Positions 8,620 to 11,021 of a stretch of 64,000 bases of DNA are shown here, one piece after another. The stretch is from assembly GCF_000027125.1 (NCBI RefSeq), contig NC_017626.1; one strand, given 5' to 3'. Source of the stretch: Escherichia coli 042. Lineage in GTDB: Bacteria; Pseudomonadota; Gammaproteobacteria; Enterobacterales; Enterobacteriaceae. Position 1 is the stretch's first letter. Each line of letters starts with the position of its first letter. A model generated the notes under the pieces. It had not been told where the DNA came from. It did not search any database and saw nothing but the letters and a program-made list of their open reading frames with translations. The position numbers and the translations under genes are program-made.

Positions 8620-11021
8620 TTAATACTCTCCCCCATTTGCGCATCAGTTAATTCTTTATGCCAGAGACGAAGATTTCTCAAATGGCCGAATAGATGACGA
8701 GTTCCCGATGTGGCTTGACCTCCAATTCGAATAAAGGTCCGTGTTTTTACGCCCGTCCACTCCGTTTTCATAGTTTTAGTAGCCTCACCGTTAGAAACTA
8801 CTCGTTTAGTACCATCAGAATAAATATTAAAACCACCAATGAATTTTCGAACATCAGCTCGACCAGCAAACACACTAGAAACGTAAGTACTTGTCGACGC
8901 TTTATAAGTTTGCATATAAAGCTGACCGTAATATTTCTCAGTTGTGTTAAAAGCGTATGTAATTGACTCAATAGGTGGCACACCAGAAAAATCAAAAATA
9001 CGCGGTGCTACATTAGGAGGAATATCGCCCCAAATTCTATTAACCTCGACAAGACACGTAAGCGGTCTATTATAGATATTATTTTTAGTTGGAATCGTCA
9101 CCATATCACTGGAGCGGGTTGCGGGTGCAGTTGTCGTAATAACAAAAGATGAAGCACATCCGCCGTTTTCAAATTGTGGTGTTGCAAGGTAAATATAATC
9201 TCCCGCTTCAGTTATACCACCTTTTTTCGGCGCATACTGAATCATTGCGCCAATTAAGGTTTCACCTTCAACAGCTTCTATAGTTGCCTCATAGAAAATC
9301 CACCCTGTAACCGGATCTTTAGTTGCAGTAGCTGCTATTCTATTGGCTGCCCCGCCAGTTTTTTCTATTATCAGAGTTCCGAAAGTTAAATAAGCATCTC
9401 CTAAAAATGTATAAACCGACCCATCGTATTTTTCAAAACGCAAACGACAACGAAGACCATCAGGAGCTTTAACCCTGCATGAAACAGTGCAATACTTATT
9501 ATCGCCACTAACATCAATCCCCCGGGATGCACTGCATCTATGCAGACTAAGTGCAGATGATTGTCCTGTCATATTATCTTTTGTTCGCATTTTGGCATAT
9601 GAAAAACCAAATTCATCAACACCATTATTAGTTTTATCGATATTGCTGGTACTCGTCCATTCAGCGGGAGTATTGGATTTAACAAAATAGTTAGTGCGCT
9701 GTCCTTCAATCAATAAACCTTCTTTTTCAAATCGTGGCTCATCAATTTTAGCAACACTAAATACGCCTGATTTATTGATATATGTGGCAGTTGATGCGCG
9801 TTTAAACTTAACAACCTTGTCGCCAGGCATCGTTATTTCATCATCACCAATAACAATTTTTTTATATGACGGCGAAAAGCCCGTAATCATATCCAGTGAA
9901 TCGTTAAACGGTATCCACACATCAGGCAGTGGCTGTAAGACATATTTATACGGCTCTGCTGCCTGACTTGCATACTCTCTGGCTGCATCTTCGCTTGCTT
10001 TAGCTGCCGTCTGGCTTGCTGCCGATGCTTTCGCTGAGTTCGCAGCCGCTGTTTCGCTCACCTTTGCGTTGGTTTCACTGGTTTTTGCTGCTTTTTGACT
10101 GTTAGCTGATGCAGTTGCAGAAGCAGCCGCCGCGCTTGCAGAACTGGCTGCGGCACTCTCGCTTTGGGCCGCTGCATCCTGACTGCTTTTCGCCGCAGTT
10201 TCACTGGCTTTGGTATTCGTTTCGCTGGTCTTCGCTGCCGCCTGGCTGGACTTTGCGTTAGTTTCACTCGTCTTCGCAGCTTTCTGGCTGTTAGCCGCAG
10301 CAGTTGCTGATCCAGCTGCTGAAGTCGCAGAACCGGCTGCCGCGCTCTCGCTTTGGGCTGCTGCAACCTGGCTGTTTTTTGCTGCAGTTTCACTGGCTTT
10401 AGCATTCGTTTCGCTGGTTTTCGCTGCCGTCTGGCTGGACTTTGCGTTGGTTTCGCTCGTCTTTGCGGCTGTCTCGCTATTTTTCGCGTTGGTTTCTGAT
10501 TTTTTGGCTGCTGTCGCGGAGTTTGCCGATGCAGTCTTTGAGGTCGCTGCCGCCTGTGCACTATTAGCTGCATTCGTTTCTGAGGTTTTCGCCGCGTTCT
10601 TTGATGATGCCGCTGCAGTTTCGGATTTCTTTGCCGCCGCTGCGCTCTGAGAGGCGGCTTCGGCGTTGCGTGCCACTTCTTCCACCATTGCCTCAAAACG
10701 ACGCAATGCCTCCGGCATGACATCATCTTCCGTCATGGCACCGAGAAAATCATTCAGCGTACCTGGTCTGGAGCCTTCATAGACGGTAATGGTCCCGGCA
10801 TGTGAAGGCGGAAAACCTTCAACCAGCAGGGTGACGCTGTACTGGCCATACTCAACATCCATGCTGTAACGTCCGGCTTCATCCGGATTTTCAGAAGCCA
10901 CCGTGTTCACCAGTACCGTGGTGCTGTTACGCTTTGCCTTCAGTTGAATAGTGCAGTTCTGTATTGGTTTTCCCGCACCATCTTTCAGCACACCTGAGAT
11001 TTTTACTGCTGCCATATCCAC
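8616..11021 (-). CDS. stf: side tail fibre protein Stf
   Basis: 801-aa ORF; N-terminus (MAAVKISGVLKDGAGKPIQNCTIQLKAKRNSTT...) closely matches lambda Stf; long Ser/Ala/Thr repeat region. Confidence 0.85.
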   Translation of the reverse strand: MDMAAVKISGVLKDGAGKPIQNCTIQLKAKRNSTTVLVNTVASENPDEAGRYSMDVEYGQYSVTLLVEGFPPSHAGTITVYEGSRPGTLNDFLGAMTEDDVMPEALRRFEAMVEEVARNAEAASQSAAAAKKSETAAASSKNAAKTSETNAANSAQAAATSKTASANSATAAKKSETNAKNSETAAKTSETNAKSSQTAAKTSETNAKASETAAKNSQVAAAQSESAAAGSATSAAGSATAAANSQKAAKTSETNAKSSQAAAKTSETNTKASETAAKSSQDAAAQSESAAASSASAAAASATASANSQKAAKTSETNAKVSETAAANSAKASAASQTAAKASEDAAREYASQAAEPYKYVLQPLPDVWIPFNDSLDMITGFSPSYKKIVIGDDEITMPGDKVVKFKRASTATYINKSGVFSVAKIDEPRFEKEGLLIEGQRTNYFVKSNTPAEWTSTSNIDKTNNGVDEFGFSYAKMRTKDNMTGQSSALSLHRCSASRGIDVSGDNKYCTVSCRVKAPDGLRCRLRFEKYDGSVYTFLGDAYLTFGTLIIEKTGGAANRIAATATKDPVTGWIFYEATIEAVEGETLIGAMIQYAPKKGGITEAGDYIYLATPQFENGGCASSFVITTTAPATRSSDMVTIPTKNNIYNRPLTCLVEVNRIWGDIPPNVAPRIFDFSGVPPIESITYAFNTTEKYYGQLYMQTYKASTSTYVSSVFAGRADVRKFIGGFNIYSDGTKRVVSNGEATKTMKTEWTGVKTRTFIRIGGQATSGTRHLFGHLRNLRLWHKELTDAQMGESIK
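10060..10640. repeat. tandem DNA repeats inside stf encoding reiterated AAKTSETNAK / SQxAAAQSESAAA units
   Basis: Reiterated peptide units visible in the Stf translation and the DNA. Confidence 0.6.

Follow-up and report, generated by a model that had tools for sequence, protein, structure and literature searches.

The question raised by this locus is what a long run of Ala/Ser/Thr-rich repeats in a prophage side tail fibre gene of Escherichia coli 042 encodes, and whether it changes the length of the fibre from one phage or prophage to another. The window, i.e., the whole stretch of DNA that was analysed, is 64,000 nt long. The gene and its upstream neighbours are placed as follows:

8616..11015, minus strand: stf-like side tail fibre gene, intact, 799 codons in the open reading frame (ORF) listing
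10731..11009, minus strand: N-terminal collar (attachment) domain, residues 5-97, matched by PF08400 and PDB 9e7m
11080-11679, minus strand: lom (Ail_Lom, E = 1.7e-127)
11747-15142, minus strand: J, from the ORF listing

The start of stf is the ATG at 11015 (MAAVKISG...), in line with most Stf homologues, which have 799 residues and the N-terminus MAAVKISG. An in-frame GTG at 11021 would give a protein of 801 residues, and residue numbers for this Stf follow the 801-residue numbering throughout. The gene at 8616-11015, which the initial annotation had called a side tail fibre gene, is, judging from its sequence and position, of the lambda type. PF08400 matches residues 5-134 (E = 5.5e-67, reaching window position 10620), and residues 5-97 align with residues 2-94 of lambda gpStf (PDB 9e7m/9mgh; 93 aligned residues, E = 8e-49), so closely similar are the two collar domains. 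In Ur-lambda, this domain forms a collar around the gpV/gpM junction (PMC12617516). A phrog_1419 ("tail protein") match spans the protein end to end. As in lambda, the gene comes after J and lom, with which it shares the minus strand (the block 11080..15142 is directly upstream of stf), and the order J-lom-stf is repeated in L001, PhiR49_1, and CFT073. The counterpart in PhiR49_1, a plaque-forming phage, is 97.7% identical and annotated as a side tail fiber protein. Directly downstream of stf we found a 93-aa ORF and a 234-aa ORF with an S74 domain, and no tfa homologue in that position. Elsewhere in the prophage, a cfPICI-like satellite of 15.2 kb is inserted within the terL gene.

The repeats themselves are arranged on several levels:

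9954..10667, minus strand: heptad array, the putative proximal alpha-helical shaft, 34 uninterrupted heptads, residues 119-356
10290..10478, minus strand: higher-order unit 1, 189 nt, 63 residues, nine heptads, residues 182-244, from the period-189 array of Tandem Repeats Finder
10101..10289, minus strand: higher-order unit 2, residues 245-307, from the unit layout
10062..10100, minus strand: partial third copy, SQKAAKTSETNAK, where the 2.2 copies of Tandem Repeats Finder end (10062)
10431..10448, minus strand: longest exact direct repeat, 18 nt, AACGCAAAGTCCAGCCAG, with its partner at 10242-10259

The DNA of the array compared with itself over 9954-10667 gives identity peaks at all multiples of 21 nt, the highest at 189 nt (0.638 vs 0.356 +/- 0.021 in codon shuffles, z = 13.3; 0.515, z = 8.7, at 21 nt), and no such periodic peaks occur in the gene on either side of the array. 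The autocorrelation of the protein reaches z = 12-16 at lags of 7, 14, and 63 residues (12.5 at lag 7). The heptads follow the consensus S-[E/A/Q]-T-[A/N]-A-[K/A]-x; of the 34, which keep an unbroken register, 32 have Ser at position 1 and 30 have Ala at position 5. With Tandem Repeats Finder, 10062-10478 comes out as 2.2 copies of a 189-nt period (83% matches), inside which shorter periods of 21 and 42 nt are nested, and repeat families in the array are spaced by 42, 84, 147, and 189 nt. These results confirm the tandem repeat and the reiterated Ala/Ser/Thr-rich units that had been noticed at 10060-10640, a span that is too short, mainly on its low side. The description of the DNA repeats as near-identical does not hold: units 1 and 2 share 153-158 of their 189 nt (81-84%, and 83-86% of their amino acids), similarity among the short units is 65-90%, and no exact direct repeat exceeds 18 nt. 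Profile searches over the array returned a Pfam CarboxypepD_reg match, dismissed at 28.3 bits for a cut-off of 32.3, and NCBIfam DnaX and SMC matches, which were below the cut-off or noise from low complexity and coiled coils.

We consider it very probable that the array encodes the proximal alpha-helical coiled-coil shaft of a lambda-type side tail fibre, an ordinary and already known feature of this protein family. An experimental parallel is the PCoil of EPclA/EPclB, collagen-like fibre proteins of E. coli O157 prophages (Ghosh et al. 2012, PMC3368898). It directly follows the PF08400 domain (PfN), is Ala/Ser-rich with a loose heptad periodicity, and differs in length between homologues by multiples of seven residues; a PfN-PCoil fragment was alpha-helical by CD and trimeric by SEC-MALLS. 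The PCoil is shorter than the shaft described here (~105-145 vs ~240 residues) and less regular, and it precedes a collagen Gly-X-Y triple helix, whereas here the shaft directly joins the globular distal region. The array itself has no collagen-like Gly-X-Y pattern: over its whole length, Gly takes heptad position 7 only twice, and there is no period-3 autocorrelation peak.

In lambda, too, a short linker precedes an Ala/Ser/Thr-rich heptad shaft, and SETNA-type heptads are common to both proteins. Residues 102-393 of Ur-lambda gpStf have been modelled as a proximal coiled coil and seen as a trimeric bundle (PMC12617516). The two shaft sequences diverge from residue ~120 on, and the one studied here is more regular (34 perfect-phase heptads and a 63-aa duplication) and shorter, ~255 vs ~290 residues. 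The Klebsiella depolymerase DpK2 of phage RAD2 (PDB 7LZJ, PMC8552709) also matches the Stf motif, with K-[T/S]-SE-[T/D]-NAK-[S/A]-SE-[T/N]-AAK heptads at residues 129-173, in an N-terminal region that appears at low resolution as an extended triple-helical bundle. DpK2 differs in that its coil is much shorter, its N-terminal anchor is another one, and the protein is a tailspike with a beta-helix enzyme domain.

Could the array instead be a flexible, disordered linker of low complexity, in which the repeats are neutral? The composition, with large hydrophobic residues almost absent, would fit, as would the high-resolution maps of lambda and DpK2, in which the shaft is not resolved. However, such a linker would hardly keep 34 heptads in strict seven-residue phase, with two positions reserved for Ser and Ala, nor vary in length by multiples of seven, and the homologous PCoil (CD, SEC-MALLS, EM) and the lambda side fibres (cryo-ET) are rigid trimeric helical rods. 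AF2 also predicts helix: a 278-residue shaft fragment, modelled as a single chain without alignment, forms helices at fragment residues 2-145 and 151-259, with a mean pLDDT of 80. We thus regard the linker as a very remote alternative. The break between the two predicted helices (fragment residues 146-150) falls in Gly-containing heptads, at residues ~236-248 of the protein. It is probably a hairpin artefact of modelling a monomer and was given no weight as a sign of a hinge. These heptads lie at the ends of the units (SESAAAG-SATSAAG-SATAAAN); that they act as a built-in flex point is conceivable but doubtful.

For the coiled-coil shaft, we propose that three chains, fixed through their N-terminal collars to the junction between tail tube and tip, would zip into a parallel alpha-helical coiled coil; by analogy with its relatives, the coil is probably trimeric. 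The helix probably starts near residue 103 (window position 10715). Its core would be built of small residues, with the Ala of position 5 as "a" and the Ser of position 1 as "d", an assignment that is in phase with the hydrophobic F109/M112/V116 heptads at the helix start. With ~240-255 helical residues, the rod would measure ~35-38 nm, each 63-residue unit adding ~9 nm, and it would keep the distal, lectin-like receptor-binding region clear of the tail. A parallel trimeric alpha-helical coiled-coil heptad rod is known in another phage fibre, T4 fibritin (gp wac), which differs in its conventional hydrophobic core, its loop interruptions, and the foldon at its C-terminus; its sequence is unrelated to that of the Stf shaft. 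The practical value of these data is small: they provide the exact coordinates and register of the shaft in a side fibre that is common among E. coli prophages.

Beyond the shaft, two features were delimited:

8619..9953, minus strand: distal region, presumed receptor-binding, residues 357-801, including the conserved junction segment PLPDVWIPFNDSL...
9111-9713, minus strand: lectin-like beta-sandwich domain, residues 437-637 (NF048003 GTA_spike_fiber, E = 1e-15)

The AF2 model of the distal region has a mean pLDDT of 64 and is confident for residues ~90-265 only. Foldseek relates it to jelly rolls of the CBM40, botulinum HCN, and LamG types (E ~5e-5, TM ~0.55 to target). These matches, to small lectin modules, hint at a jelly-roll or lectin-like beta-sandwich, presumably receptor-binding, where lambda has a gp37-like, OmpC-binding tip, but they are too loose to point to a ligand. 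Lambda-type side tail fibres are trimers on the virion and accelerate adsorption by means of a receptor-binding domain at their distal end.

Does the length of the shaft vary? Among the nearest 120 protein clusters, the shaft has 237 residues in 97 and 174, i.e., 63 fewer, in 20; the other three are singletons that are off register (+3, -4, and -44 residues). Alignment of a 736-aa allele shows a clean gap of 189 nt, one missing unit. In a single-crossover model, this allele equals that of CFT073 minus one unit, with 0 mismatches over 1060 nt, and the crossover lies inside a 68-nt exact repeat. Since it does, the unit retained in one-unit alleles is a chimera of units 1 and 2. The phage isolate IdasGreatGrand also has a one-unit Stf, of 731 residues, with a different distal domain. 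More broadly, shafts range from 38 to 387 residues in 72 representatives of the PF08400 N-domain, the lambda-type ones having 275, 282, 359, and 387 residues (all 2 mod 7). In this set, the shaft was measured from the end of the N-domain to the first Pro, the endpoint "first P/W/F/C/H" having been dropped because it cut shafts at internal His residues. In complete genomes, more distant relatives carry shafts that are 315 nt (15 heptads) shorter. Copy number thus differs across related phages and prophages, and with it the encoded length of the fibre, as the initial annotation had suggested it could, one 189-nt unit being lost exactly.

Alleles with two units prevail: going by the sequences retrieved, they are almost fixed among the complete E. 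coli genomes listed. When both short alleles were used as queries, there was no one-unit allele among the 25-30 matches listed per search, and the best full-length matches listed in complete E. coli genomes cover the query span plus 189 nt. We never saw a three-unit allele. Single-piece matches that start at query nt 535 (H106-H110) were rejected as one-unit alleles because their alignment is confined to the second half of the gene, as it also would be for a two-unit or truncated gene.

These counts raise the suspicion that one-unit alleles are produced by assemblies collapsing across an exact repeat of 68-82 nt, the real copy number being constant. The perfect agreement of the 736-aa allele with that of CFT073 outside the missing unit would be expected of such a collapse, and this allele was found in draft and metagenome assemblies only, with no one-unit allele among the complete-genome matches listed. 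Yet the 20 one-unit clusters are distinct and come from NCBI, ENA, and Logan, and one of them (P0006) occurs on 13 contigs, including one from an assembly made with k = 141, longer than the repeat. IdasGreatGrand was sequenced independently, and the shafts shorter by 315 nt are in complete genomes. We therefore find this explanation unlikely and continue with genuine loss of units.

How could units be lost? The array may be seen as a hierarchy with levels of 21 nt (the heptad), 42 nt (the pair), and 189 nt (the unit); the duplication of the unit would be old, with ~17% divergence since. Whole units would be lost or gained when in-phase blocks undergo unequal homologous recombination or slippage, and the homology that arrays share across different fibre genes would provide joints for the exchange of distal modules. 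Events in multiples of 21 nt preserve the coiled-coil register up to the distal domain. Mosaic joints in stf are found at nt ~359 (the start of the array), nt 897 (inside unit 2), and nt ~1296-1357. Together with the in-phase 21-nt periodicity, the joints at nt ~359, 897, and ~1300 are natural splice points for the engineering of host range in lambda-type fibres.

The description of the array as recombination-prone is thus right in that units are lost and that mosaic joints fall at or inside it. It does not fit the allele of the window, which is only weakly recombinogenic. Efficient RecA recombination is usually quoted as needing roughly 23-27 bp, and the longest exact repeat here is shorter (18 nt), so the present-day instability of this allele is probably low. 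In sister alleles, exact repeats spaced by 189 nt are 29, 56, and 68 nt long, with exact repeats of up to 82 nt also present, and the 18-nt block is where the deletion crossover of these alleles maps.

The existence of both one-unit and two-unit alleles, and of those longer exact repeats in sister alleles, could also point to a contingency locus, a hypermutable tandem repeat that switches fibre length or host range at high frequency. We think this very unlikely. The units of the window are too divergent, with too short an exact repeat, two units are present in 97 of the 120 nearest clusters and in every best complete-genome match listed, and alleles with three units are absent from those seen. 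Moreover, every length change keeps the reading frame, which leaves no room for on/off switching. Loss or gain of whole units by recombination or slippage remains our preferred reading. It is doubtful, though conceivable, that the 63-residue block (nine heptads, ~9 nm) is a selectable length module, recurrently lost and gained via exact repeats of 56-82 nt. If it were, the reach of the shaft would be matched to the thickness of the host surface polysaccharide or to the length of the central J fibre, and fibres of one and of two units would both be kept for that reason. The natural pair of one-unit and two-unit alleles offers a means to test fibre reach against adsorption.

The repeats have one more consequence, which had also been pointed out from the sequence, namely long spurious ORFs on both strands. 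Both are present:

10058..10726, minus strand: off-frame ORF, 222 aa, Arg/Gln/Lys/Pro-rich, judged spurious
10210..10650, plus strand: antisense ORF, 146 aa, Ala/Val/Phe/Leu-rich, TTG start, judged spurious

That either is a real overlapping gene has a practically negligible probability. They are long, they are open in the alleles of the window, CFT073, and PhiR49_1, and the antisense one even has a RefSeq protein accession. But shuffling synonymous codons of the shaft reproduces their lengths: the off-frame open run has 218 codons vs a mean of 238 in the shuffles, and the antisense run 155 vs 129 (5-95% range 77-211). Their products are mirror-image low-complexity sequence, and the sense frame is one continuous ORF of 799 codons with recognised domains at both ends. 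Counts of synonymous and non-synonymous changes are uninformative here: in comparisons among the window, CFT073, and PhiR49_1 alleles, they are identical in the sense and antisense frames (5/5, 3/2, and 2/3, from few substitutions), because the antisense frame has its wobble positions in common with the sense frame. The ORFs are by-products of composition, as the amino acids of the array lack the codons that could create stops in those frames. In heptad arrays of such composition, antisense ORFs can be so long that automated annotation calls them in place of the true gene: in the RefSeq version of CFT073, the equivalent of the antisense ORF is annotated (WP_011076512.1) and the intact stf gene is split.

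The repeat array (window 9954-10667, minus strand) lies, as the initial annotation proposed, inside a side tail fibre gene. This gene and its upstream neighbours are as follows, with residues numbered on the 801-aa version of Stf:

8616-11021 (-), stf ORF: 801 aa if a GTG is the start, 799 aa if it is the ATG at 11015, the commonest start among homologues
11080-11679 (-), Ail/Lom gene (E = 1.7e-127), directly upstream of stf
11747-15142 (-), gene in the lambda J position, 1131 aa, directly upstream of stf

Stf has a PF08400 "prophage tail fibre N-terminal" domain (aa 5-134, E = 5.5e-67), aa 5-97 correspond to residues 2-94 of lambda gpStf as solved in the tail-tip structures 9e7m/9mgh (E = 8e-49), and PHROG 1419 ("tail protein") covers it end to end. 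GpJ Pfam domains occur on the J-homologous ORFs of two related loci (L001 and L002), the E. coli CFT073 homologue is annotated gpJ, and a 97.7%-identical gene in PhiR49_1, a phage that forms plaques, has the annotation side tail fiber protein. Together, these matches and neighbours identify the gene as the stf of a lambdoid prophage. Among 5426 complete E. coli genomes, about 224 have a copy covering at least 80% of stf, and 4816 have at least its N-terminal module. The stf end of the prophage is flanked by the chromosomal genes msrP-like (Oxidored_molyb), msrQ-like (Ferric_reduct), and zinT (ZinT/YodA) at 3694-6242, and therefore lies between about 6250 and 7300.

The repeats are real. Tandem Repeats Finder reports a 189-nt period (2.2 copies, 83% matches, window 10062-10478) with nested periods of 21 and 42 nt, and a separate repeat search found families spaced by 42, 84, 147, and 189 nt and no inverted repeats. 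When the DNA of the array is compared with itself, identity peaks at each multiple of 21 nt, reaching 0.638 at lag 189, where codon shuffles give 0.356 +/- 0.021 (z = 13.3), and 0.515 at lag 21 (z = 8.7); the same lag analysis gave no comparable peaks in the N-terminal and C-terminal parts of stf. The array is longer on both sides, mainly the low one, than the location given initially (10060-10640). Its translation consists of 34 successive heptads (aa 119-356) in unbroken register, with Ser at position 1 (32 of 34), E, A, or Q at position 2, mostly Thr at position 3, Ala (25) or Asn (7) at position 4, Ala at position 5 (30 of 34), Lys (17) or Ala (15) at position 6, and a variable position 7. 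A longer period is superimposed on the heptads:

10290-10478 (-), unit 1: aa 182-244, 63 residues, 9 heptads
10101-10289 (-), unit 2: aa 245-307, 63 residues, 9 heptads
after aa 307, partial third unit: its 13-residue start

The units had been described as near-identical DNA repeats, which does not hold: only 153-158 of their 189 nt agree, and no exact direct repeat in this allele is longer than 18 nt (10431-10448 and 10242-10259).

Modelled by AlphaFold2 as a single chain without an alignment, aa 97-374 are nearly all helix, with a mean pLDDT of 80 and one low-confidence break, at Gly-containing heptads around aa 236-248, which we regard as a probable hairpin artefact of the monomer. Gly is present, and Lys and Glu are missing, in the three heptads that close each unit (SESAAAG-SATSAAG-SATAAAN; aa ~224-244 and 287-307, window 10290-10330 and 10101-10140). 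The pLDDT falls below 50 where the helix breaks at these unit-end heptads, which could mark a softer spot in the rod or, again, reflect the modelling. The same heptad phase already holds upstream of the array, in the final helix of the N-domain, where F109, M112, and V116 fill positions 5 and 1; from this we infer that Ala(5) is core position "a" and Ser(1) "d". The rise of a coiled coil is about 0.148 nm per residue, so that ~240-255 helical residues would give a shaft of ~35-38 nm, to which each 63-residue unit would add ~9 nm. When Ghosh et al. 2012 expressed the PfN-PCoil segment of a fibre from an E. coli O157 prophage, the Ala/Ser-rich region following PF08400 was alpha-helical by CD, trimeric by SEC-MALLS, and a short rod in EM, and PCoil lengths vary in multiples of seven (PMC3368898). 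In the 2025 study of Ur-lambda, gpStf begins with a collar domain (1-91) and a linker; a proximal coiled coil (102-393), visible as a trimeric bundle, comes next, and a hinge connects it to the distal domain. Four such fibres reach out and touch host OmpC ahead of J reaching LamB (PMC12617516). Besides gpStf, the only solved chains matching the array are Klebsiella depolymerases, whose residues 129-173 have the same heptads and lie within an "extended triple helical bundle" (PMC8552709). Many PHROG tail-fibre families match aa ~115-350, and the motif is therefore widespread in phage fibres. The array is the already described PCoil, or proximal coiled-coil shaft, of lambda-type side fibres. The detail added here is modest: the phase holds perfectly over 34 heptads, a 63-residue duplication has diverged, natural one-unit alleles exist and their crossover is mapped, and lengths are quantised by heptad.

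The suggestion that fibre length could vary between strains is supported. We measured the shaft from NAEAAS to the first Pro in the 120 nearest protein clusters: it has 237 aa in 97 of them and 174 aa, exactly 63 fewer, in 20. The remaining three are off-register singletons, P0001 (+3 aa, an NSA duplication), P0120 (-4 aa), and P0012 (-44 aa), which may represent tolerated stammer- or stutter-like discontinuities of the coiled coil or sequencing errors. More broadly, 72 representatives with the same N-domain have shafts of 38 to 387 aa, and the lengths in the lambda-type group (275, 282, 359, and 387 aa) are always a multiple of seven apart. The short allele of L001 (736 aa) differs in length from the window DNA by a single clean 189-nt gap. 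A single-crossover deletion from the CFT073 allele reproduces it with 0 mismatches over 1060 nt, the crossover mapping within a 68-nt block identical between the two CFT073 units: upstream, the allele follows unit 1 (0 vs 52 mismatches) and downstream unit 2 (0 vs 27). This is the pattern that unequal homologous recombination or slippage leaves behind. One unit is also present in the 731-aa Stf of IdasGreatGrand, an independently isolated phage with a different distal domain. Only draft and metagenome contigs yielded the 736-aa form; among the matches listed in complete genomes the one-unit form is absent, the top matches to both short alleles carrying 189 nt more. The form is therefore rare, and for the draft contigs collapse of the assembly is a minor alternative. 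The array had also been called recombination-prone, which fits its sister alleles better than the window one. Two-unit sisters, with exact 189-nt-spaced repeats of 29 nt (PhiR49_1), 56 nt (PhiR47_1), and 68 nt (CFT073), are better substrates than the window allele. Compared with PhiR49_1, the latter shows four private amino-acid changes in unit 2.

Nucleotide similarity to other E. coli fibres stops at three places in stf: at nt ~359, where the array starts, in most of the 4816 genomes; at nt 897, within unit 2, e.g. in PhiR47_1, whose shaft goes on with other heptads; and at nt ~1296-1357, past the conserved PLPDVWIPFNDSL... junction. The array and its borders thus act as mosaic joints, in agreement with the long-standing view of tail-fibre gene evolution reportedly found in Haggard-Ljungquist 1992 and Sandmeier 1994.

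Long spurious ORFs were anticipated on both strands, and both exist:

10058-10726 (-), off-frame ORF, 222 aa
10210-10650 (+), antisense ORF, 146 aa

Shuffling synonymous codons within the shaft reproduces their lengths: the +1 frame is open for 218 codons (shuffle mean 238) and the relevant antisense frame for 155 (mean 129, range 77-211). The ORFs are therefore a consequence of amino-acid composition. In the C-terminal half of stf, the same test finds only 50-73 open codons. Such ORFs matter in practice, as they accompany the misannotation of an intact gene. The CFT073 stf (L007 3002-5401, corresponding to window 8616-11015) is one intact 799-codon ORF, but RefSeq/PGAP splits it into a "pseudo" N-terminal piece and two further CDSs, and annotates the antisense 146-aa ORF as hypothetical protein WP_011076512.1. 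In many other complete genomes the match overlies a "hypothetical protein (x3)" pattern.

Beyond the shaft, residues 437-637 match the NCBIfam "phage head spike fiber domain" (E = 1e-15). The distal AlphaFold2 model (9-sequence alignment) is confident for a beta-sandwich core only, for which Foldseek retrieves CBM40 sialic-acid-binding modules, botulinum toxin HCN, and LamG (E ~5e-5, TM ~0.55 to target), a weak hint that the domain might bind carbohydrate. After stf, lambda tfa is replaced by three small genes (window 7326-8619), a set also found in PhiR49_1 and IdasGreatGrand:

8338-8619 (-), 93-aa ORF, phrog_1361
7624-8328 (-), 234-aa ORF, coiled-coil-like N-terminal stretch and Peptidase_S74 intramolecular-chaperone domain
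7326-7613 (-), 95-aa ORF

The 234-aa ORF looks like the C-terminus of long tail fibres (phrog_3299, phrog_454); it may serve as a second fibre tip or a chaperone, or be a remnant. In CFT073 and L001 its counterpart is 346 aa long, and a DNA invertase (Resolvase + HTH_7) comes after it.

The most notable item in the window lies outside the array: a 15.2-kb element (27725-42955) that interrupts the prophage large-terminase gene, terL, at about codon 338, with junctions near 42956-42969 and 27711-27724. In the ORF at 41560-43983, the TerL ATPase domain runs directly into a P4-type integrase (Arm-DNA-bind_3 + Phage_integrase). The element encodes this integrase, Bro-N, a DUF927 primase, capsid, S78 protease, portal, HNH, and TerS, along with a complete TerL of its own that shares 33% identity with the interrupted copy; with the gene content of a capsid-forming PICI, it is a cfPICI-like satellite. 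Related phages have an uninterrupted terL. In vB_EcoS-813R8, nt 3341-5349 correspond to window 44965-42956 and nt 5336-7560 to 27724-25500, so that the two segments have 14 nt in common around a core of TTACCAA. Of the 5426 complete E. coli genomes, 35 share this terL::int junction.

Elsewhere, tRNA-Arg(tct) and tRNA-Met/Ile(cat) lie just downstream of antiterminator Q (48639-48891 and 49035-49856), a site at which Stx-converting lambdoid phages have tRNAs and stx; no stx-sized ORF follows them in the window. Finally, an 813-aa ORF (60605-63046, plus strand) combines a RecE-type Exonuc_VIII domain (aa 57-189) with a C-terminal Rv2179c-like 3'-5' exoribonuclease (aa 632-803).
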